From Escherichia coli (GTDB lineage Bacteria > Pseudomonadota > Gammaproteobacteria > Enterobacterales > Enterobacteriaceae): a stretch of 64,000 bases of DNA. Position numbers and translations under genes: made by a program. The stretch lies in NCBI RefSeq assembly GCF_022846255.1, contig NZ_AP025682.1. One strand, 5' to 3'. Below are positions 9,568 through 60,029 of the stretch, in pieces (position 1 is the stretch's first letter; each line of letters opens with the position of its first letter). Below the pieces are notes generated by a model. It saw only the letters and a list, made by a program, of their open reading frames with translations, searched no databases and was not told where the DNA came from.

Positions 9568-11157
9568 TTACATCACCAGACGGCGAATGTCAGACAGCGT
9601 GTTGTTAATGATGGTAATGAAACGGGCACCATCAGCACCGTCGATCACGCGGTGGTCGAAGGAGAGAGAAATCGGCAGCATCAGACGCGGCACGAACTCT
9701 TTACCATTCCACACCGGCTCCATCGCGGACTTGGAAACGCCGAGGATAGCCACTTCCGGCGCGTTCACAATCGGCGCGAAGTGGGTAGTCCCCAGGCCGC
9801 CGATGCTGGAGATGGTGAAGCAACCGCCCTGCATTTCGCCCGCAGTCAGCTTACCGTCACGCGCTTTCTTAGAAATAGTCATCAGCTCGCGAGACAGCTC
9901 GATGATGCCTTTCTTGTTGACGTCTTTGAATACCGGAACAACCAGACCGTTCGGGGTATCCACCGCCACACCGATGTTGATGTATTTCTTCAGGGTCAGA
10001 CGCTGACCGTCTTCCGACAACGAACTGTTGAAGCGAGGCATCTGCTCAAGAGCTGCAGCAACGGCTTTCATGATGAAGACAACTGGGGTTATCTTCACAT
10101 CCAGCTTACGTTTCGCCGCTTCTTCGTTCTGCTGTTTACGGAACGCTTCCAGCTCGGTGATATCGGTTTTGTCGAAGTGGGTAACATGCGGGATCATCAC
10201 CCAGTTACGGCTCAGGTTCGCACCAGAGATTTTCTGGATACGGCCCAGTTCCACTTCTTCGATTTCACCAAACTTGCTGAAGTCCACCTTCGGCCACGGC
10301 AGCATACCTGGGATACCGCCGCCAGTCGCCGCCGGAGCCGCTTCTGCACGTTTGATAGCTTCTTTCACGTAAGCCTGAACGTCTTCGCGCAGGATACGAC
10401 CTTTACGGCCAGTGCCCTTCACTTTCGCCAGGTTAACGCCAAATTCGCGTGCCAGACGGCGGATCAGCGGAGTCGCGTGAACGTAAGCGTCGTTTTCAGC
10501 AAATTCAGATTTGCCTTCGGCTTTCGCAGCCGGAGCTGCTGCTGGAGCTTCAGCTTTTGCTGCCGGAGCCGGCGCTGCCGCTTCCTGTTTCGCAGGAGCT
10601 GCCGCAGGCGCTGCGCCTTCAACTTCGAAGATCATAATCAGCGAGCCAGTTTTCACTTTATCGCCAACGTTGACTTTCAGTTCCTTCACGACGCCTGCAA
10701 ACGGAGCCGGAACTTCCATAGACGCTTTATCGCCTTCTACGGTGATCAGCGACTGTTCAGCTTCAACTTTATCGCCAACTTTCACCAGGATTTCGGTCAC
10801 TTCAACTTCGTCGCTGCCGATATCCGGAACGTTAACGTCTTTTGCCGCTGCAGCCGCTGGAGCTGCTGCCGGAGCGGCTTCTTTCTTCTCTTCTGCCTGA
10901 GCAGGTGCAGCGTCTGCTGCACCGTCGGCGGAATCGAAAATCATAATCAGTGCGCCGGTCTGGGTTTTATCGCCAACAGAGACTTTGATCTCTTTAACGA
11001 TACCCGCCTGCGGAGACGGAACTTCCATAGAGGCTTTGTCGCCTTCTACGGTGATCAGCGACTGTTCGGCTTCAACTTTGTCGCCCACTTTGACCAGGAT
11101 CTCGGTGATTTCAACTTCATCAGCCCCGATGTCCGGTACTTTGATTTCGATAGCCAT
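9568..11157 (-). CDS. aceF: dihydrolipoyllysine-residue acetyltransferase, pyruvate dehydrogenase E2; this allele has two lipoyl domains (529 aa)
   Basis: Full-length ORF; two KASMEV lipoylation motifs, Ala/Pro linkers, E3-binding and catalytic domain ending DHRVIDGA...RRLVM. Confidence 0.95.
10667..11150. repeat. intragenic direct repeats (~165 nt each, ~320 nt apart) encoding the AceF lipoyl domains
   Basis: Near-identical blocks around 10667-10832 and 10985-11150 (gtgatcagcgactgttc...ggcttcaactt...). Confidence 0.8.
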
Positions 11158-11171
11158 TATTCTTTTACCTC

Positions 11172-13835
11172 TTACGCCAGACGCGGGTTAACTTTATCTG
11201 CATCGATGTTGAATTTGGCGATTGCGTCAGCAACCACTTTCTTATCGATTTCGCCACGTTTAGCCAGTTCGCCCAGCGCCGCAACCACGACATAAGAAGC
11301 ATCAACTTCAAAGTGGTGACGCAGGTTCTCACGGCTGTCGGAACGACCGAAGCCATCAGTACCCAGTACGCGGTAGTCGTCAGCCGGTACGTAAGTACGG
11401 ACCTGCTCAGCGAACAGTTTCATATAGTCGGTAGATGCCACTGCCGGAGCGTCGTTCATCACCTGAGCGATATACGGAACGCGCGGAGTTTCCAGCGGGT
11501 GCAGCATGTTCCAGCGTTCACAATCCTGACCATCACGCGCCAGTTCGGTGAAGGAAGTCACGCTATAAACGTCAGAACCTACGCCGAAATCTTTCGCCAG
11601 GATCTCAGCTGCTTCACGGACGTGACGCAGGATAGAACCGGAGCCGAGCAGCTGAACTTTACCTTTGCTACCTTCAATGGTTTCGAGTTTGTAGATACCT
11701 TTACGGATACCTTCCTCAGCACCTTCCGGCATTGCCGGCATGTGGTAGTTTTCGTTCAGCGTAGTGATGTAGTAGTAAACGTTCTCTTGTTTTTCACCGT
11801 ACATACGCTCCAGACCGTCATGCATGATGACAGCAACTTCGTAAGCGTAAGCAGGGTCGTAAGAGATACAGTTCGGGATAGTCAGCGACTGAATGTGGCT
11901 GTGGCCATCTTCGTGCTGCAGACCTTCACCGTTCAGGGTGGTACGACCGGAAGTACCGCCGATCAGGAAGCCACGCGCTTGCTGGTCGCCAGCCGCCCAG
12001 CACAGATCGCCGATACGCTGGAAGCCGAACATCGAGTAATAGATGTAGAACGGAATCATCGGCAGATTGTTGGTGCTGTAAGAGGTCGCCGCTGCCAGCC
12101 AGGAACAACCTGCGCCCAGCTCGTTGATCCCTTCCTGCAGAATCTGACCTTTCTCGTCTTCTTTATAGTAAGCAACCTGCTCGCGGTCCTGCGGGGTGTA
12201 CTGCTGACCGTTCGGGCTGTAAATACCAATCTGACGGAACAGACCTTCCATACCGAAAGTACGCGCTTCGTCGGCGATGATCGGTACCAGACGATCTTTG
12301 ATCGACTTGTTCTTCAGCATTACGTTCAGGGCACGAACGAAAGCGATAGTGGTAGAGATCTCTTTGCTCTGCTCTTCCAGCAGCGCGCCGAAGTCTTGCA
12401 GGCTCGGCAGCTCAAGCTTCTCGGTGAAGTTCGGCTGACGGCTTGGCAGATAACCGTGCAGTTTCTGACGCTGAGCGTGCAGATAGGTATGCTCTTCAGA
12501 ACCTTCCGGGAAGGTGATGTACGGCAGTTTTTCGATATCGGCATCAGACACCGGCACATTGAAACGGTCGCGGATGTGACGCACGCCGTCCATGTTCATT
12601 TTCTTAACCTGGTGCGCGATGTTTTTACCTTCAGCCGCGTCGCCCATGCCGTAACCTTTAATGGTATGAGCAAGGATTACCGTCGCTTTGCCTTTGGTTT
12701 CCTGCGCTTTCTTGAATGCAGCGTAGATTTTCTTCGGATCGTGACCGCCACGGTTCAGCGCCCAGATCTGCTCGTCAGTCCAGTCTGCAACCAGAGCTGC
12801 GGTTTCCGGATATTTACCGAAGAAGTGTTCACGAACGTACGCACCATCTTTCGATTTGAAGGTCTGGTAGTCGCCGTCAACGGTTTCGTTCATCAGCTGG
12901 ATCAGTTTACCGCTGGTATCTTTACGCAGCAGTTCATCCCAACGGCTACCCCACATCACTTTGATCACGTTCCAGCCAGCACCTTCGAAGATGCCTTCCA
13001 GTTCGTTGATGATCTTGCCGTTACCGGTGACCGGGCCGTCAAGACGCTGCAGGTTACAGTTGATAACGAAGACCAGGTTATCCAGTTTTTCACGGGTAGC
13101 GATGGTGATCGCACCTTTGGATTCCGGTTCGTCCATTTCACCGTCGCCGAGGAACGCGTAAACGGTTTGTTTAGAGGTATCTTTCAGGCCACGGTGTTCC
13201 AGATATTTCAGGAACTTAGCCTGGTAAATAGCACCAATCGGACCCAGCCCCATAGATACGGTCGGGAACTGCCAGAATTCCGGCATCAGTTTCGGGTGCG
13301 GATAGGAAGAGAGGCCATTGCCGTGAACTTCCTGACGGAAGTTATCCAGCTGCTCCTGAGTCAGACGACCTTCCAGGAAAGCACGAGCGTAAACGCCTGG
13401 GGAGATGTGGCCCTGGAAGTAAACCAGGTCGCCGCCATCCTGCTCGTTGCGTGCACGGAAGAAGTGGTTAAAGCACACATCATAAATGGTTGCGGAAGAC
13501 TGGAAGGACGCCATGTGGCCGCCCAGTTCGAGGTCTTTTTTCGACGCACGCAGAACCGTCATGATGGCGTTCCAGCGGATAGCTGAACGAATACGGCGTT
13601 CCAGTTCCAGATTACCCGGATACTCCGGTTGTTCTTCAACGGGGATGGTGTTGATGTAGTTGCTGATACCGGTGCCTGCGGCTACGTTGACACCGCCTTT
13701 GCGGGCTTCAGCAAGCAGTTGGTCGATCAGATACTGAGCACGCTCAACACCTTCTTCACGGATGACCGATTCGATCGCCTGGAGCCAGTCGCGAGTTTCG
13801 ATCGGATCCACGTCATTTGGGAAACGTTCTGACAT
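11172..13835 (-). CDS. aceE: pyruvate dehydrogenase E1 component (887 aa)
   Basis: Full-length [27 protein letters not shown]...; 14 nt upstream of aceF. Confidence 0.97.
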
Positions 13836-13995
13836 GGGTTATTCCTTATCTATCTAATAACGTTGAGTTTTCTGGAACCTGTCCCATTGAACTCTCACCG
13901 GAAAGCTCAATAAGACAGGTTCTACGTTTAGTTGCCGCGCTTTTATATGCGCTTGATTTACAACATCTTCTGGATAATTTTTACCAGAAAAATCA

Positions 13996-14760
13996 CTAAT
14001 TCTTTCGTTGCTCCAGACGACGCAGAGAACGCTCACGGCGGCTCTCTTCACGGCTTCTGTCGAGCAAAATTTCTTCGATAAAGGCCAGATGGCGATGCGA
14101 TGCTTCGCGCGCTTCTTCCGGCTTACCGGCCATAATCGCTTCAAATATACGGGTGCGGTGACTACTCACCAGCGGCAGCATCTCGCGACGCGAATAGAGC
14201 AATTCGAAGTTCTGGCGGACATTCTGGGCCAACATCGGCTCCATACACCTTAGCAGATGAAGCAGAACCACATTGTGGGCCGCTTCGGTGACGGCAATCT
14301 GATACTGGAGTACGGCGTTTGATTCCGCGTCCAGATCGCCAGACTGCTGCGCCAGCTCTATAGCGTGGTGGAGTTCACGGATGCGTTCCTTGTCTTCATC
14401 GGTACTACGCAGCGCGGCGTAATAAGCGGCGATACCTTCCAGGGCGTGTCGTGTTTCGAGCAAGTCATACTGTGATTCAGGATGGTCGGAGAGCAGCTCC
14501 ACCAGCGGATCGCTGAAGCTTTGCCATAGGCTGCTCTGGACAAAAGTGCCGCCACCCTGGCGACGAAGCAACAAGCCCTTCGCTTCGAGACGTTGAATCG
14601 CCTCACGCAATGAGGGACGGGAGACGTCAAACTGTTTTGCCAGTTCGCGTTCCGGTGGGAGTTTTTCGCCCGGGCGGAGAGTGCCTTCGAGGATCAAAAA
14701 CTCCAGTTGCTGCTCAATCACATCGGAGAGTTTTGGTTGGCGGATTTTGCTGTAGGCCAT
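13996..14760 (-). CDS. pdhR: GntR-family pyruvate-responsive repressor PdhR (254 aa)
   Basis: [29 protein letters not shown]... with N-terminal HTH; track ORF extended by 11 codons. Confidence 0.95.
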
Positions 14761-14791
14761 GAGTTCCTGTCTTAAGCCACTTGCCGAAGTC

Positions 14792-14808
14792 AATTGGTCT
14801 TACCAATT
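14792..14808. promoter_or_regulatory. PdhR operator (AATTGGT-N3-ACCAATT) in the pdhR promoter
   Basis: Perfect dyad aattggtcttaccaatt seen ~30 bp upstream of pdhR start. Confidence 0.8.
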
Positions 14809-15213
14809 TCATGTCTGTGACGCTAAAGTAACAAAGTATTCACCTTATGTCCATACATGTTTTGATTGAAATCATGAAACTGTGCACATTTTAACAACTT
14901 GACATATATAACGTTTCAAAGTTGTAACTATGCACAAATGTAGACTTTACGTAGGAAAGGGATTTTTTAACGATTATTAAACTATAAAAATCCGAATTGA
15001 ACCGATTCACTTACCAATTTTGTGATTTTTAATTCAATTAAAACGAATTTAAATTCATTCTGCATATTGAGAGGGGTTGAGGCTGAGCTTTACAAACGGT
15101 TTCTTTTTAAGCAACTCATCTTCAACCATGCATAAAGCGGGTGCATTCGCTGTCGCATACCATTATTCTTGATCTGACGGAAGTCTTTTTGTAACAATTC
15201 AAACTTCTTTGAT

Positions 15214-15231
15214 GTAAACAAATTAATACAA
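15214..15231. promoter_or_regulatory. putative TyrR box upstream of aroP
   Basis: tgtaaacaaattaataca resembles TGTAAA-N6-TTTACA (4/6 match in the right half); aroP is a known TyrR-regulon member. Confidence 0.35.
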
Positions 15232-15300
15232 CAAACGGAATTGCAAACTTACACACGCATCACTGCGTAGATCAAAAAAACAATCACCGCACGAGGTTTC

Positions 15301-16674
15301 ATGATGGAAGGTCAACAGCACGGCGAGCAGCTAAAGCGCGGCCTTAAAAACCGCCATATTCAGCTTATCGCGCTGGGTGGCGCGATAGGGACCGGGTTAT
15401 TCCTGGGTAGCGCCTCCGTAATACAGTCCGCAGGGCCAGGGATTATCCTGGGTTACGCCATTGCTGGTTTTATCGCCTTTCTGATCATGCGTCAGCTGGG
15501 TGAAATGGTGGTCGAAGAACCTGTCGCAGGCTCCTTTAGCCACTTTGCTTATAAATACTGGGGCAGTTTTGCCGGTTTCGCCTCTGGCTGGAACTACTGG
15601 GTACTGTACGTTTTAGTTGCCATGGCAGAGCTGACTGCCGTGGGTAAATACATTCAGTTCTGGTATCCGGAAATCCCAACCTGGGTTTCTGCCGCCGTGT
15701 TCTTTGTGGTGATCAACGCCATCAACCTGACAAACGTAAAAGTGTTTGGCGAGATGGAGTTCTGGTTTGCCATTATCAAAGTTATCGCGGTGGTAGCGAT
15801 GATCATCTTCGGCGCCTGGCTGCTATTCAGCGGCAACGGCGGCCCGCAGGCGAGCGTTAGCAACCTGTGGGATCAGGGTGGTTTCCTGCCACACGGCTTC
15901 ACCGGTCTGGTGATGATGATGGCGATTATCATGTTCTCTTTCGGTGGTCTGGAACTGGTGGGGATCACCGCAGCAGAAGCTGATAACCCGGAGCAAAGTA
16001 TCCCAAAAGCAACTAACCAGGTTATCTACCGCATCCTGATTTTCTATATTGGTTCGTTAGCCGTTCTGCTCTCACTAATGCCGTGGACCCGCGTTACCGC
16101 CGATACCAGTCCGTTTGTGCTGATCTTCCACGAGTTAGGCGATACCTTTGTAGCGAATGCGCTGAATATCGTGGTACTGACTGCTGCGCTCTCCGTGTAC
16201 AACAGCTGCGTATATTGCAACAGCCGTATGCTGTTCGGTCTGGCACAACAAGGGAACGCGCCAAAAGCGCTGGCGTCTGTCGATAAACGCGGCGTACCGG
16301 TTAACACTATTCTGGTGTCTGCGCTGGTTACGGCATTGTGCGTACTGATTAACTACCTTGCCCCAGAGTCCGCTTTCGGACTGTTAATGGCGCTGGTGGT
16401 ATCTGCACTGGTCATCAACTGGGCGATGATCAGTCTGGCGCATATGAAATTCCGTCGTGCCAAACAAGAACAAGGCGTGGTAACTCGCTTCCCTGCCCTG
16501 CTTTATCCGCTGGGTAACTGGATCTGCCTGCTGTTTATGGCGGCGGTACTGGTGATTATGCTGATGACCCCAGGAATGGCGATTTCGGTATACCTGATCC
16601 CGGTATGGCTGATCGTGTTAGGTATCGGCTATCTGTTTAAAGAGAAAACCGCCAAAGCCGTAAAAGCGCATTAA
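15301..16674 (+). CDS. aroP: aromatic amino acid:H+ symporter (457 aa)
   Basis: Full-length APC-family permease ORF matching AroP. Confidence 0.95.
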   Translation: MMEGQQHGEQLKRGLKNRHIQLIALGGAIGTGLFLGSASVIQSAGPGIILGYAIAGFIAFLIMRQLGEMVVEEPVAGSFSHFAYKYWGSFAGFASGWNYWVLYVLVAMAELTAVGKYIQFWYPEIPTWVSAAVFFVVINAINLTNVKVFGEMEFWFAIIKVIAVVAMIIFGAWLLFSGNGGPQASVSNLWDQGGFLPHGFTGLVMMMAIIMFSFGGLELVGITAAEADNPEQSIPKATNQVIYRILIFYIGSLAVLLSLMPWTRVTADTSPFVLIFHELGDTFVANALNIVVLTAALSVYNSCVYCNSRMLFGLAQQGNAPKALASVDKRGVPVNTILVSALVTALCVLINYLAPESAFGLLMALVVSALVINWAMISLAHMKFRRAKQEQGVVTRFPALLYPLGNWICLLFMAAVLVIMLMTPGMAISVYLIPVWLIVLGIGYLFKEKTAKAVKAH

Positions 16675-30277: not shown

Positions 30278-31429
30278 TTAATCAGCTTGCTTACGCAGGA
30301 ATGCTGGGATATCCAGATAATCCGGCTCTTTCGCAGTTTGCGGCGCATTGTCATTCACGACTTTAGCAACCGGCTTCTGCTCCTGGGTCAGCGGAGCCAT
30401 ACCGTGCTGCTGGTAGCGATCCATCACTGGCTGCTGAACCTGCTTATTGGTCACCAGAGTGATTTCAGGACGTTTGTCCATGCCGATACCTGTCGCAACA
30501 ACAGTTACGCGCAGTTCGTCATTCATATCCGGGTCAAGAGAAGTACCGATAACCACGGTCGCGTTGTCGGAAGCAAATGCACGGATGGTGTTACCTACCG
30601 TTTCGAACTCATCCAGACGCAGGTCGAAGCCCGCTGTGATGTTTACCAGTACGCCGCGTGCGCCAGACAGGTCGATATCTTCCAGCAGCGGAGAAGAGAT
30701 AGCCATTTCAGCAGCTTCTTCCGCACGGTCTTCACCGCTCGCCACGCCAGAACCCATCATTGCGTAGCCCATTTCAGACATTACGGTGCGTACGTCTGCA
30801 AAGTCCACGTTCATCAAACCCGGACGAGTAATCAGTTCGGCGATACCTTGCACAGCGCCTTTCAGTACATCGTTCGCTGCGCCAAACGCATCCAGCAGGG
30901 AGATACCACGGCCCAGAACTTTCAGCAGTTTGTCGTTCGGGATAGTGATCAGAGAGTCCACATGCTTGGACAGTTCAGTGATCCCCTGCTCCGCGAATGC
31001 CATACGCTTCTTGCCTTCAAAGTTGAAGGGCTTAGTGACGACAGCAACGGTCAGGATACCCAAATCTTTTGCCACTTCAGCGACGACTGGTGCTGCACCT
31101 GTACCGGTACCACCACCCATACCCGCAGCAATAAAGACCATGTCTGCACCTTCCAGCGCCGCACGCAGTGCATCGCGATCCTCATCAGCCGCATTGCGGC
31201 CAACTTCTGGATTAGCGCCAGCTCCCAGTCCTTTGGTGATACCGCTACCGATTTGAATCGTCTGTCCAACCGCTGTTTTACGCAGCGCTTGTGCATCGGT
31301 ATTTACCGCGAAGAATTCAACACCTTCAATGCGCTCGCGCACCATGTGTTCAACAGCATTACCGCCGCCGCCGCCGACGCCGATGACTTTAATCACCGCG
31401 TCATTGGTAAGTTCCATTGGTTCAAACAT
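30278..31429 (-). CDS. ftsZ: cell division GTPase FtsZ (383 aa)
   Basis: Tubulin signature GGGTGTG; full-length match. Confidence 0.98.
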
Positions 31430-31489
31430 AGTTTCTCTCCGATTTGTGCCTGTCGCCTGAGGCCGTAATCATCGTCGGCCTCATAAAAA

Positions 31490-32752
31490 TTAAAACTCTT
31501 TTCGCAGCCAACTATTGAGTCGCTTGATCCACGAGCCAACTGATGCTGTAACACGTTTTTCTACTTCAGCTTCACCGTTAAGATGTGACTCTTTCCCGTA
31601 ATGAAGCAATCCCACCGCCGTCGAATAATACGGCTCCTGAGCATAATCCGTTAAACCGGTAATGTTCAGCGGCGCGCCGATACGCACCTGCGTATGAAAC
31701 ACGCGCTGAGCACAGGCTGCAAGACCTTCGATCTGCGCTGCGCCACCGGTTAATACAATGCCTGCCGCCAGGTGATGTTTAACCCCTTGTTGGCGAAGCT
31801 TTTCCTGCAACTGCAATATCTCTTCGTTGACCAGATTGAGCAGCTCGGTATAGCGCGGCTCGATCACCTCTGCCAGGGTCTGACGTTGCAGACTCCGCGG
31901 CGGACGACCGCCTACGCTCGGCACTTCCACGCTCTCATCTTTTCCAACGATGGAGCCCAGCGCACAACCGTGGCGAACTTTAATCGCTTCGGCGTCACTT
32001 GGCGGTGTGCCAAAGGCGTAAGCGATATCACTGGTCACGACATTGCCAGCATAAGGAATTACCTTCGTGTGGCGCAATGCCCCACCGGTATAAACGGCGA
32101 TATCCATTGTACCACCACCGATATCGACAACGCAGACACCCAGTTCACGTTCATCTTCCGTCAATACCGAATAACTTGATGCCAGTCCGGCAAATATCAG
32201 TTGGTCAACTTTCAGCCCACAACGTTCAACCGCTTTGACGATGTTTTTCGCCATATCGTTGTGACATGTGATCAGGTGCACTTTTGCCTGCATCCGCACG
32301 CCCGAAAGTCCTACCGGATTCTTGATCCCTTCCTGATAGTCAATCGCATACTCTTGCGGGATCACATGCAGCACACGATGCTCATCGCGCACACGCACCG
32401 ATTTCGCGGTATGGACGACGTTTTCCACATCTTCTTGCGTCACTTCTTCTTCAGAAATAGGCACCATACCAATTTCATTCTGGCAGCTGATGTGCTTACC
32501 AGAAAGCGCCAGATATACCGAAGAGATCTGACAATCTGCCATCAATTCTGCCTGGTCAATGGCGCGTTGTACGCACTTGACCACGGATTCGAGGTCGTTC
32601 ACCCCGCCTTTATCCATACCACGCGACGGGCAGCTGCCCACGCCAATGATATTGACCATACCGTCGGGCAGAACTTCCCCTACTAAAGCGGCAACCTTCG
32701 CGGTACCAATCTCCAGTCCTACTACCAGTTTTCTGTCCGTCGCCTTGATCAT
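31490..32752 (-). CDS. ftsA: cell division protein FtsA (420 aa)
   Basis: Actin-like ATPase, full-length match. Confidence 0.97.
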
Positions 32753-51104: not shown

Positions 51105-51369
51105 GGCCTGCCTCACTGTTTGACGGAAAAAATGTGTAAAACACATTAACCGTCCGATCTTGCTTAAGCAATTGGCAGACAGAGACATAAACACGGGGTA
51201 ATAAGAATAAACAGGAGGAAAGGTGAAAAGAAACGATAAAATCCTCCATTACAGAGGATGAAATTGATAATAAATCGGCTGAATCCTACAACTTACAGCA
51301 ATTTCTCTATTTTTTTAATTAATCCTAAAATAGAGAGCACAAACATTCAGAATAAAATTCTACATTCAA

Positions 51370-51419
51370 TAAAAAATGCAGAATAAACCAGACATTGATG
51401 TCTGACCTATTCTGCATTC
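51370..51419 (-). terminator. leuO intrinsic terminator (nested hairpin plus U-tract)
   Basis: 11-bp arms aatgcagaata / tattctgcatt with inner palindrome cagacat/atgtctg, followed on the minus strand by TTTTT. Confidence 0.6.
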
Positions 51420-51421
51420 AG

Positions 51422-52366
51422 TTAGCGTTTGCAAATTGAGACTAATTGCTCTTCCATCCACTGATGGCCTTTATCACGCCCGGCAGCTTCATGCCAGGAG
51501 AGATAACAGGTTCTGCTGTTTTGTTTTAACGGCAGCGGTAATACCTGTAACTCTAAGGATTCAGCGAATTCTTCAGCCAACCAACGCGGCGCAATAGCGA
51601 CCAGATGCGTTTGCGACACCACGCTAAGTACGCTCATCATTGCCATGCCCTGATACGCGATACTGGCTTGCTTATCTACCGTGTCATACCAGGTTTGACT
51701 AAATGATGCGAAACGATCGAGCGAAACCGCAGCGTGTTGTTCGTTATAAACATCATGCTTCAGTAACGGGCCTTTAATTGTTGGATGATTTTTGCTGGCT
51801 ACCAACACCATTTCATCTTTAAATAATGGCACACTGGTAAATTCAGGGCGATGGAAGTCTTCATAACTAATCACAAACTCCGTTTCCTGATAACGCAGCT
51901 GATGTTCAGTGTTCTGATTTAATGAAGACTTGAACATAACATGTATATTTGGCGCAATCTGCTCAATGTGATTATAAATCTGCGAGGTCAGAATGCTGTC
52001 TAACGGGCTGCAAACACAAAGATGAAATACACGTTCACTGCTCGCGGGTTCAAAACCTGAACCAGGCAATTCATTTTGTACTAGTTGCAATGCCTGACGA
52101 ACTGAGCCAAAAAGTTGAAATGCGCGAGCAGTCGGTTGAATACCACGGCCATAACGAACAAAAAGCTCGTCATTAAACATCACCTTCAGGCGTGCAACAG
52201 CGTTACTGACCGCAGGTTGCGACATTCCCAGAGCATGAGCGGCACGGGTGATGTTTTGCTCCTGCATCACGGCATCGAAAACGGTTAATAAGTTGAGATC
52301 GACCATGCGTAGCTGTGGCTTGCTTAACTCCGCCGTCTCTGGATGATCTGTTTGTACCTCTGGCAT
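51422..52366 (-). CDS. leuO: LysR-family global regulator LeuO (314 aa)
   Basis: [30 protein letters not shown]...; track ORF extended by 28 codons. Confidence 0.95.
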
Positions 52367-53023
52367 ACTTAACTCCACTGTCACACTTAACTCCCTTTCC
52401 CTTATTGGAATGCAGAGAAATAATCCTCGAGAATATGATTTATCATGCATATAAAATAAGAAAAAGCAAAATGAGTAAAATTAGGAAAACATAAAGATAC
52501 AGGTTCTGATAAAAACAGAATCCACTGCCGAGCAAAGAGTTATTTACTACAGCATAATAATCCATAATGTTTTTGTTGCGAAAACAATCTAATCATAACT
52601 ACCACGAATACTCAATCATCCACAAAATGGATTAAATGTGCTTTTTAATAATTAATTTATATGTTTAATGCATTAATTCTTAACATTAATTGATCAATAA
52701 TATTCAGCAAATGAATATCAAAAAATTCGCAAAACATATAATTCAATACAAATCATCAAGATAGGTTTTGCAACGCGTGCATTTTATCCCCCTTTCCCTC
52801 GTTGATTAGATGCAAAAAATTATTCTGAAATATGTCAACCGATGAAAAGCATCGGCGGTTAAGCAGAAATTAATATCGCTTGTTTTAACCACCGCAGCAC
52901 AATTAGCTAATTTTACGGATGCCGAACTCACAATGGCGTGACGTTTTTATTGCTTCAGGGTTGACATCCGTTTTTGTATCCAGTAACTCTAAAAGCATAT
53001 CGCATTCATCTGGAGCTGATTTA

Positions 53024-53110
53024 ATGACTCACATCGTTCGCTTTATCGGTCTACTACTACTAAACGCATCTTCTTTGCGCGGTAGACGAGTGAGCGGCAT
53101 CCAGCATTAA
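53024..53110 (+). CDS. leuL: leu operon leader peptide (28 aa)
   Basis: [28 protein letters not shown] with four consecutive Leu codons; followed by attenuator hairpin. Confidence 0.9.
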
Positions 53111-53130
53111 GCCAGCACGCAGTCAAACAA

Positions 53131-53158
53131 AAACCCGCGCCATTGCGCGGGTTTTTTT
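53131..53158 (+). terminator. leu attenuator terminator
   Basis: aaacccgcgccattgcgcgggttttttt: GC stem followed by T7 run, 20 nt after leuL stop. Confidence 0.9.
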
Positions 53159-57883: not shown

Positions 57884-57917
57884 TTTGTACACCGTCCGGC
57901 ACTCAATCGCCAAAAAG

Positions 57918-58143
57918 AAAAAAGCCAGCAGATAATCACTGCTGGCGTGGCGATTAACACCAATACTCAGTCACACATGATGTCCGCAAATCAGTAGTCA
58001 GAATGACTCCCCTCCCACTGCATCAGTTCTTCAAGCATGGTTAATCGTTGTGGGACGCTTAACCAACGCAACCAGCACAACTTCGCTATCGCGGTAAAAT
58101 AGTGCTGATAAAACTGACGCATGGGGCACCTCCTTGCTTCATC
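57918..58143 (-). ncRNA. sgrS: dual-function small RNA SgrS (glucose-phosphate stress)
   Basis: Minus strand reads gatgaagcaaggaggtgccccatgcgtcag... at the 5' end; conserved seed catcatgtgtgactgagtattggtg; 3' hairpin cagcagtgattatctgctgg plus U-tract; divergent from sgrR. Confidence 0.85.
57991..58122 (-). CDS. sgrT: SgrT small protein (43 aa) encoded within SgrS
   Basis: MRQFYQHYFTAIAKLCWLRWLSVPQRLTMLEELMQWEGSHSDY; the 83-aa track ORF is an upstream extension beyond the sRNA 5' end. Confidence 0.8.
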   Translation of the reverse strand: MRQFYQHYFTAIAKLCWLRWLSVPQRLTMLEELMQWEGSHSDY

Positions 58144-59894: not shown

Positions 59895-60029
59895 TAACGC
59901 CGTTCTCAACGGGGTGCCACGCAGCCGCGTGCGCTGAGAAAATACCCGTCGAACCTGATCCGGATAACGCCGGCGAAGGGATTTGAGGCTCCTTCTCAAG
60001 TCCTTTGCCACTCTTTTGTGAGGTGCAAA
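59895..60029 (+). promoter_or_regulatory. TPP riboswitch (thi-box) in the thiBPQ leader (SroA region)
   Basis: ggggtgccac...gctgagaaaatacccgtcgaacctgatccggataacgccggcgaaggga matches the THI element, immediately upstream of thiB. Confidence 0.85.

Follow-up and report, generated by a model that had tools for sequence, protein, structure and literature searches.

The AT-rich leuO-leuL spacer of Escherichia coli, a divergent control region conserved in length and base composition across the Enterobacteriaceae

The closest described counterparts of the region analyzed here are the same locus in E. coli K-12 and its ortholog in Salmonella Typhimurium, the ilvIH-leuO-leuABCD relay locus, which includes an AT-rich gene silencer of 72 bp (Fang & Wu 1998; Chen et al. 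2001-2005, via PMC4264507). The promoter relay, in which supercoiling couples the activation of the three promoters one after another, was worked out in Salmonella Typhimurium carrying the promoter mutation leu-500 in a topA background (review: PMC4264507, which cites Fang & Wu 1998), and transcription from upstream relieves H-NS silencing of Salmonella leuO (PMC6797219, PMC10981669). In E. coli K-12, leuO is kept silent under laboratory conditions by H-NS and StpA (PMC5025477, PMC3950696). The gene can be transcribed from two promoters, the distal P1 and the proximal P2; BglJ-RcsB activates P2, an effect that LeuO counteracts (PMC5025477, PMC3950696, PMC6698644). Derepression of P1/P2 in hns (stpA) mutants has been reported (PMC3950696, PMC5025477), and one E. 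coli study concluded that feedback of LeuO on its own gene matters little at steady state (PMC5025477). On the other side of the spacer, LeuO binds the leuLABCD promoter region, and this binding is enhanced by 2-isopropylmalate (PMC12494820).

The 78 promoter islands described for K-12 include the leuL/leuO spacer (83898, length 426), to which H-NS binds "according to all studies" (PMC3661553, Table 1). Binding of H-NS was seen in all three genome-wide ChIP studies of K-12, and the data sets of Grainger, Kahramanoglou and Oshima mark leuO as associated with it (PMC5797941, Table 2). Genomic SELEX with RpoD yielded a peak of RNA polymerase holoenzyme in the spacer, which carries no H-NS SELEX flag in the table of that study, unlike in the in vivo ChIP data (PMC3946193). 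A comparable arrangement at another locus of E. coli is the upstream silencer of bgl, which is likewise AT-rich, silenced by H-NS/StpA and relieved by LeuO and BglJ-RcsB (PMC3950696), although it controls a single operon. Silencing of bgl is also relieved by IS insertion (PMC9678765), and natural IS1 insertions are found in the leuO spacer as well. An AT-rich, H-NS-targeted leuO-leuL region is thus a known textbook case, few H-NS-silenced control regions of enteric bacteria having been studied more, and its recognition in the DNA analyzed here is correct but ordinary.

Locus identity and base composition

Positions 52367-53023 of the 64-kb stretch of E. coli DNA that we analyzed (the window) are exactly the 657-bp intergenic spacer between leuO and leuL, as defined by the coordinates of the open reading frames (ORFs). 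The leuO ATG at 52366 lies on the minus strand and the leuL ATG at 53024 on the plus strand, so that the two genes diverge; leuA is located downstream of leuL and ilvI downstream of leuO, according to ORFs, translations and annotated records.

51422 to 52366, minus strand: leuO coding sequence, a LysR-type regulator of 314 amino acids, 46% GC (ORF and annotated records)
52367 to 53023, no strand: the whole leuO-leuL divergent spacer, 657 bp, 32.4% GC

The 1,057 bp around the spacer match the chromosome of E. coli Z1323HEC0477 at 100% identity, with flanks annotated as leuO, leuL and leuA; over the whole window the overall identity to this strain is 98.7%, and the first 15 kb are unlike in content. 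Of 5,426 complete E. coli genomes, 5,399 contain the locus, and most E. coli genomes carry a spacer allele about 5% different from that of the present strain. In K-12 MG1655 (b0075/b0076; NC_000913.3 83709-84367) the flanking genes and their orientation are the same, but the spacer is 659 bp long and 95.1% identical (32 substitutions and two 1-bp indels), compared to 96.9-97.8% identity for the flanking genes. The exact gene boundaries, the perfect annotated match, the K-12 layout and a Leu_leader match of 147 bits all bear out a previous sequence-only reading, which had named the region as the leuO-leuL divergent regulatory region. This is the native region from which leuO and leuLABCD are divergently controlled in E. 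coli.

That reading had further ascribed promoter-relay behavior to the spacer, which stands in part. The gene order of the relay (ilvIH-leuO-leuLABCD, with leuO divergent from leuL over a long AT-rich spacer) is present in the window, and the required architecture is conserved, but the relay was established in Salmonella Typhimurium and we found no report of its demonstration in E. coli in the literature. A relay at the E. coli locus might be extrapolated from the orthologous Salmonella locus, whose gene order is the same. Salmonella spacers are 645-655 bp long with 33% GC and share the promoter-proximal blocks described below, and their centre is still alignable.

The GC content of the spacer (32.4%) is far below that of the window (52.4%), leuO (46.0%) and leuA (52.9%). 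No other 657-bp stretch of the 64 kb is lower; 0.06% of sliding windows are as low, all of them overlapping the spacer, and the next independent minimum of this length is 37.1%. Relative to 850 windows free of any overlap with it (mean 52.7%, sd 3.1%, minimum 37.7%), the spacer has a z of -6.5. The GC profile therefore clearly differs from that of the flanking coding DNA, in agreement with the marked AT-richness noted from the letters of the sequence. Low GC is also not a property of the intergenic DNA in general: the remaining intergenic DNA, pooled from window positions above 15212 because the first 15 kb differ in content from Z1323HEC0477, has 43.9% GC, which is 11.5 points higher than the spacer, and the 601-bp cra-mraZ spacer has 42.8%. 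Within the leuO-leuL spacer the composition is uneven, with 40-48% GC at the ends, 20-24% at 52617-52766 and a minimum per 100 bp of 16% at 52642-52741.

The A/T runs that the sequence-only reading had pointed out, citing a string that corresponds to 52665-52729 (20% GC), are present, but they are not an additional feature, as their number is predicted by composition: the spacer has 11 runs of at least 8 nt compared to 9.1 +/- 2.2 in mononucleotide shuffles of the spacer (P = 0.26). The longest run (21 nt vs 14.6 +/- 3.0 in shuffles, P = 0.05) is marginal. A crude autocorrelation of AA/TT detected no helical phasing in the spacer and thus no evidence of strongly phased curvature.

Conserved modules and regulator sites within the spacer

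Conservation was assessed with a one-genome-per-species scan, which yielded 80 Enterobacteriaceae loci in about 25 genera, with LeuO relatives at 73-99% identity. When 23 genera were aligned, promoter-proximal blocks at both ends of the spacer proved conserved, and the AT-rich centre fast-evolving. On the leuO side the following elements were found:

52369 to 52399, minus strand: leuO 5'-UTR and ribosome-binding block, reading GGAAAGGGAGTTAAGTGTGACAGTGGAGTTAAGT followed by ATG, conserved over 23 genera
52429 to 52460, minus strand: best-conserved leuO-side block, GAGAATATGATTTATCATGCATATAAAATAAG (tabulated as AATATGATTTAYCATGCATATAA), at most 3 substitutions in 71 of 80 species
52457 to 52464, minus strand (leuO-sense): second match to the wwTTCykA motif
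52481 to 52496: conserved block TAGGAAAACATAAAG, enclosing the candidate BglJ-RcsB box, at most 2 substitutions in 40 of 80 species
52482 to 52489, minus strand: candidate BglJ-RcsB core box TTTTCCTA, which matches wwTTCykA (motif from PMC3950696)
52554 to 52582, minus strand, towards leuO: sigma-70-like promoter TTCGCA-17-TATTAT from a consensus scan, candidate distal promoter P1

The core of the ribosome-binding block, CTCCACTGTCA, is retained with at most one substitution in 67 of 80 species. Based on the published description of P1 and P2 (PMC3950696), the block at 52429-52460 probably represents the proximal leuO core promoter (P2) region. The BglJ-RcsB site may be placed at a wwTTCykA match; P2 would then be located about 57 bp downstream of either match. 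The RcsB-type core reads TTTTCCTA in the present strain and TTTTCCGA in K-12, whereas the hexamers of the candidate P1 are identical in both strains, and genomic SELEX with RpoD lists the same TTCGCA/TATTAT pair for leuO (PMC3946193, Table 1). Three natural isolates with IS1 events in the spacer were found. In isolate AHB18 the insertion hits the block at 52429-52460 (target duplication 52452-52460), and in strain STB20-1 the IS1 element at 52579-52586 splits the -35 hexamer of the candidate P1. In FDAARGOS_943 leuO is deleted.

The leuL side holds the control elements of the leucine operon:

52802 to 52831, plus strand, towards leuL: upstream sigma-70-like site TTGATT-18-TGAAAT, a consensus match only
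52895 to 52910, no strand: conserved 16-bp block CAGCACAATTAGCTAA; 71 of 80 species have it with no more than 2 substitutions, and its distance to the leuL ATG is fixed at 118-140 bp
52961 to 52966, plus strand: -35 TTGACA of the leuLABCD promoter; 76 of 80 species have GGTTGACAT with no more than 1 substitution, at a distance of 64-67 bp to the leuL ATG
52976 to 53016, plus strand: block with the -10, the transcription start and the early leader of the leu operon, at most 4 substitutions in 73 of 80 species
52984 to 52989, plus strand: weak -10 TAACTC of leuLABCD
53010 to 53158, plus strand: leucine operon leader RNA (Rfam RF00512, 147.4 bits, E = 1e-33, gathering score 50)
53024 to 53110, plus strand: leuL peptide, 28 amino acids with an LLLL run
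53130 to 53158, plus strand: leu attenuator terminator

The leader is 99.4% identical to that of K-12, and the hexamers TTGATT/TGAAAT of the upstream site are given for leuLABCD in PMC3946193, Table 1. A scan with the sigma-70 consensus recovered 3 sites in 2.3 kb compared to 6.2 +/- 2.6 in shuffles, hence no excess; this simple scan misses the real leuL promoter because of its weak -10, and promoter islands are defined by a different algorithm.

The 16-bp block CAGCACAATTAGCTAA is centred about 95 bp upstream of what we take to be the leuL transcription start and overlaps a palindrome, AATTAGCTAATT, at 52901-52912. We found no binding factor assigned to this block in the literature. It agrees with the Lrp consensus YAGHAWATTWTDCTR in 13 of 15 letters and is one of five strand-hits to this consensus (at most 2 mismatches) in the spacer, compared to 0.48 in dinucleotide shuffles, of which 1 in 500 reaches five. 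However, the published Lrp genomic-SELEX peak near leuO (K-12 85,536) is located in the leuO-ilvI spacer and not in the leuO-leuL spacer, and we therefore regard Lrp binding in the latter as hypothetical.

Between the two ends lies the AT-rich centre with several regulator sites:

52500 to 52890, no strand: AT-rich centre, 30% GC, minimum 16% at 52642-52741
52665 to 52676, no strand: SlyA-like box TTAATGCATTAA, a published box (PMC5797941) located in the sequence
52700 to 52718, no strand: perfect 7-5-7 palindrome ATATTCA-GCAAA-TGAATAT, the sole perfect one in the spacer

The centre makes up most of the K-12 promoter island 83898_426, whose coordinates 83898-84323 correspond to window positions of about 52411-52834 by alignment of the spacers and which is H-NS-bound in all ChIP studies (PMC3661553). 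It probably represents the platform on which H-NS and StpA nucleate and spread. Published K-12 ChIP and silencing work (PMC3661553, PMC5797941, PMC5025477, PMC3950696) supports the H-NS-silenced state that the sequence-only reading had assumed. The high-affinity H-NS motif TCGATAAATT from the literature shows no clear enrichment, with 2 matches at 2 mismatches in the 657 bp, close to the number of about 0.9 expected from its density across the window.

SlyA binds a 344-bp EMSA fragment (PMC5797941) that corresponds to window positions 52367-52709. Its first box is shared with K-12, as are the distal promoter hexamers and the leader, and the second published SlyA-like box, TTAAATATATAA, has one substitution in the present strain. 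The palindrome at 52700-52718 is likely the core of LeuO binding site I, because its half-sites are identical to those of the one perfect 7-5-7 palindrome that lies between casA and cas3 in K-12 (ATATTCA-TACTG-TGAATAT), which fits the LeuO core site described as common to cas site II and leuO site I (PMC6698644). In K-12 the palindrome is imperfect, ATATTCACCAAATCAATAT, with the half-site TCAATAT where the present strain has TGAATAT. Matches to the palindrome of the present strain occur in 7 of 80 loci overall; among the 44 related loci listed, the motif at that position was found in just three other Escherichia loci, and in Salmonella it is absent at that position.

Conservation across the Enterobacteriaceae

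The arrangement of the locus is the same throughout the family. In each of the 79 related loci that include the leuL side, leuL-leuA is located divergently upstream of leuO, and ilvI is downstream of leuO in 79 out of 79 related loci with enough DNA. In the 79 related species and the window together, the spacer measures 636 +/- 21 bp (median 634 bp), with 78 of the 80 within 600-660 bp, and its GC content is 31-44% (median 34.4%) compared to about 53% in leuA. The coefficient of variation of its length is 3.3%, whereas that of the adjacent leuO-ilvI spacer is 13.2%.

The centre of the spacer diverges faster than the ends but is still recognizably homologous among close relatives. In score-based tests, z is 10-17 for Salmonella and Citrobacter (12-15 for Salmonella), 3.7 for Enterobacter and 1.9 for Atlantibacter. 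A first test had indicated no homology of the centre between genera; this test was underpowered because of permissive gap scoring, and its result was overruled by the score-based z-tests and the alignment of the close group. Between E. coli and Salmonella the centre is 54% identical with only 3 gap columns in 391 bp, compared to 45% identity at fourfold-degenerate sites of leuA, and small conserved islands are present inside it. In other genera the centre keeps 30-34% GC beside leuA fourfold sites at 62-79% GC. Composition and length are thus held more tightly than sequence, as expected if the DNA serves as platform for a protein recognizing AT-richness and not a strict motif.

Origin and role of the low GC content

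The established account, according to which the spacer is a platform for silencing by H-NS and StpA between two conserved promoter modules, very probably applies to this locus as well, with the function carried over from K-12 and Salmonella. About 390 bp of DNA with about 30% GC would serve as loading platform for H-NS and StpA, and the resulting filament would cover the leuO promoters and keep leuO off. LeuO, BglJ-RcsB, SlyA and LrhA would bind within or next to the AT-rich tract and modulate or counteract silencing, and transcription or supercoiling from neighboring promoters might open the silenced tract, which is the basis of the Salmonella promoter relay. The leuO-side module comprises the ribosome-binding/5'-UTR block, the putative proximal promoter block, the RcsB-type box and the candidate distal promoter; the leuL-side module comprises the TTGACA -35, the -10/start block, the leader-attenuator and the upstream 16-bp operator-like block. 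At this far end the leu promoter would be mainly under leader-attenuator control and insulated from the silenced tract. The low GC content and the fixed length of the spacer are presumably maintained because they are needed for this role in silencing and insulation.

A more far-reaching interpretation, which we consider conceivable but rather unlikely, is that the spacer is an insulator defined by composition and calibrated in length and that, jointly, the CAGCACAATTAGCTAA block is an unrecognized pan-family operator coupling leuLABCD to Lrp or LeuO. If the insulator reading is true, selection would act on how long a tract, coated by H-NS or transmitting supercoils, lies between the two promoters.

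It is less probable still, and in our view improbable, that the low GC content is neutral, with a weakly constrained long spacer drifting to AT mutational equilibrium and H-NS binding incidentally. The fast evolution of the centre, whose similarity is near noise in distant genera, would be compatible with drift, and so would the observations that A/T runs are no more frequent than composition predicts and that the specific H-NS motif is not clearly enriched. However, the length of the spacer is four times tighter than that of the adjacent one, and the small number of gap columns between E. coli and Salmonella is unexpected for unconstrained DNA. The identity of the centre is also somewhat above that of the leuA fourfold sites, the other intergenic DNA of the window, including the cra-mraZ spacer of similar length, has not become comparably AT-rich, and the tract contains small conserved islands and mapped regulator sites.

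There is very little room for the view that the AT-richness is a relic of a recent horizontal acquisition of leuO and its upstream DNA, with H-NS acting merely in xenogeneic silencing. GIST and one alien-gene predictor do pick out the K-12 spacer and leuO (PMC3661553 Table 1; PMC5797941 Table 2), and leuO itself has a GC content of just 46%. Yet gene order, spacer length and low GC are common to all 79 related species carrying the leuL side, and LeuO identity declines smoothly from 99% to 73%. This shared layout together with the smooth decay of LeuO indicates that the arrangement is ancestral to the family and that its low GC has been maintained and not ameliorated; synteny, length and GC in 80 Enterobacteriaceae species thus effectively refute a recent transfer. 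The low GC content and the length of about 635 bp are ancestral to the Enterobacteriaceae, and the composition-based 'foreign DNA' calls for leuO are consequently false positives.

With regard to coding capacity, the earlier statement that the spacer has no ORF of 60 amino acids or more is true of ORFs wholly inside it, the largest of which has 41 amino acids, but two mechanical ORFs of at least 60 amino acids enter the spacer as in-frame upstream extensions of leuO (ATG 52450) and leuL (ATG 52919). An unannotated gene for a small protein or small RNA that shapes the composition of the spacer is highly improbable: several ORFs of 20-41 amino acids are present mechanically, K-12 has a tiny annotated protein, yabR, in the adjacent leuO-ilvI spacer, and RNA polymerase binding within the spacer has been published (PMC3946193), but Rfam finds no family other than Leu_leader in the spacer even at E <= 1, the intact spacer contains no annotated feature among the E. 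coli records listed, where an inserted IS1 transposase is the only one, the ORF-bearing centre is not conserved across genera, and the upstream extension of leuO spans a region with indels that are not multiples of three.

What is new for this well-described region is that its length and GC content are conserved throughout the family, that its conservation could be mapped as modules, that the LeuO-I palindrome could be placed and differs from the K-12 allele, and that IS1 events occur in it. The locus also represents a calibration point, as composition alone, taken from the raw sequence, correctly flags a control region silenced by nucleoid proteins. LeuO is a master regulator of genes for CRISPR-Cas, efflux and virulence, and the recurrence of IS1 events among natural isolates suggests an easy way in which strains could rewire this regulator or lose it.

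Spacer alleles and the source of the window

Among E. coli genomes, the identity of the 657-bp leuO-leuL spacer to the allele of the window is at least 99% in 455, 95-99% in 1,454 and 90-95% in 3,483; the majority of genomes, K-12, BL21 and O157:H7 among them, thus carry an allele that is approximately 5% diverged from that of the window, which exceeds the divergence of the flanking genes (2-3%). Three of the spacer matches are located on plasmids. In the 1,057 bp that surround the spacer, strain Z1323HEC0477 (NZ_CP148323.1) and the window are 100% identical; over 15212-64000 their identity is only 98.7%, and for 9500-16000 no match above 98.8% was found among complete E. coli genomes. Taken together, these identity values suggest either that the source strain lies outside the complete-genome collection or that the locus is a recombination mosaic.

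The second-lowest GC content in the window (approximately 37%) was noted for the aroP-pdhR intergenic region at about 14761-15300, which in K-12 is listed as an H-NS-bound 'promoter island' (121694_343; PMC3661553). Z1323HEC0477 differs from the window at this site by an inserted island, which codes for a tssD protein (type VI secretion tube), a protein with an HNH motif, and immunity proteins.

The leuO-ilvI spacer and Rfam matches

The leuO-ilvI spacer (51105-51421), to which the position of the tiny K-12 gene yabR corresponds, is likewise AT-rich (34.7% GC, with one 200-bp window at 28.5%). It also contains the top Lrp-consensus match of the whole window (51348-51362, one mismatch). The ilvIH operon is known to be under Lrp control, and the position of this match is consistent with such regulation. 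A terminator-like structure in this spacer and Rfam matches elsewhere were located as follows:

51419-51374, long terminator-like hairpin, 3' of leuO
31421-31510, minus strand, PssrA (Rfam, 105 bits, above gathering score)
57917-58143, SgrS
59900-59999, TPP riboswitch

The latter two, together with tp2, STnc40, naRNA4 and ES036, are other, expected Rfam matches in the window. PssrA is described as a plasmid-encoded Shigella sRNA; the match detected here is chromosomal, in the ftsA-ftsZ junction region.

Insertions and putative regulatory sites in the leuO-leuL spacer

IS1 events were observed in the leuO-leuL spacer of three natural E. coli isolates (loci L002, L085, L086):

52452-52460, AHB18 (blood culture), IS1 insertion with a 9-bp target duplication, located 86-94 bp upstream of leuO in the proximal block that is conserved
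52579-52586, STB20-1 (pig), distal TTCGCA promoter, with its -35 interrupted by IS1
51200-52862, FDAARGOS_943, IS1-associated deletion spanning the whole of leuO plus 496 bp of spacer sequence

Towards leuL, a 16-bp block (CAGCACAATTAGCTAA, region 52895-52912) overlaps the palindrome AATTAGCTAATT and is kept at a constant distance upstream of the leu promoter in 71 of the 80 Enterobacteriaceae species compared. Judged by sequence, it is similar to an Lrp site (agreement at 13 of 15 positions); no binding factor is assigned to it in the accessible literature.

The predicted core of LeuO site I (52700-52718) is a perfect palindrome in the window (ATATTCAGCAAATGAATAT), in contrast to the imperfect one of K-12 (ATATTCACCAAATCAATAT), and its half-sites are the same as those of the LeuO site at the cas promoter. 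This might amount to a lineage difference in LeuO autoregulation.
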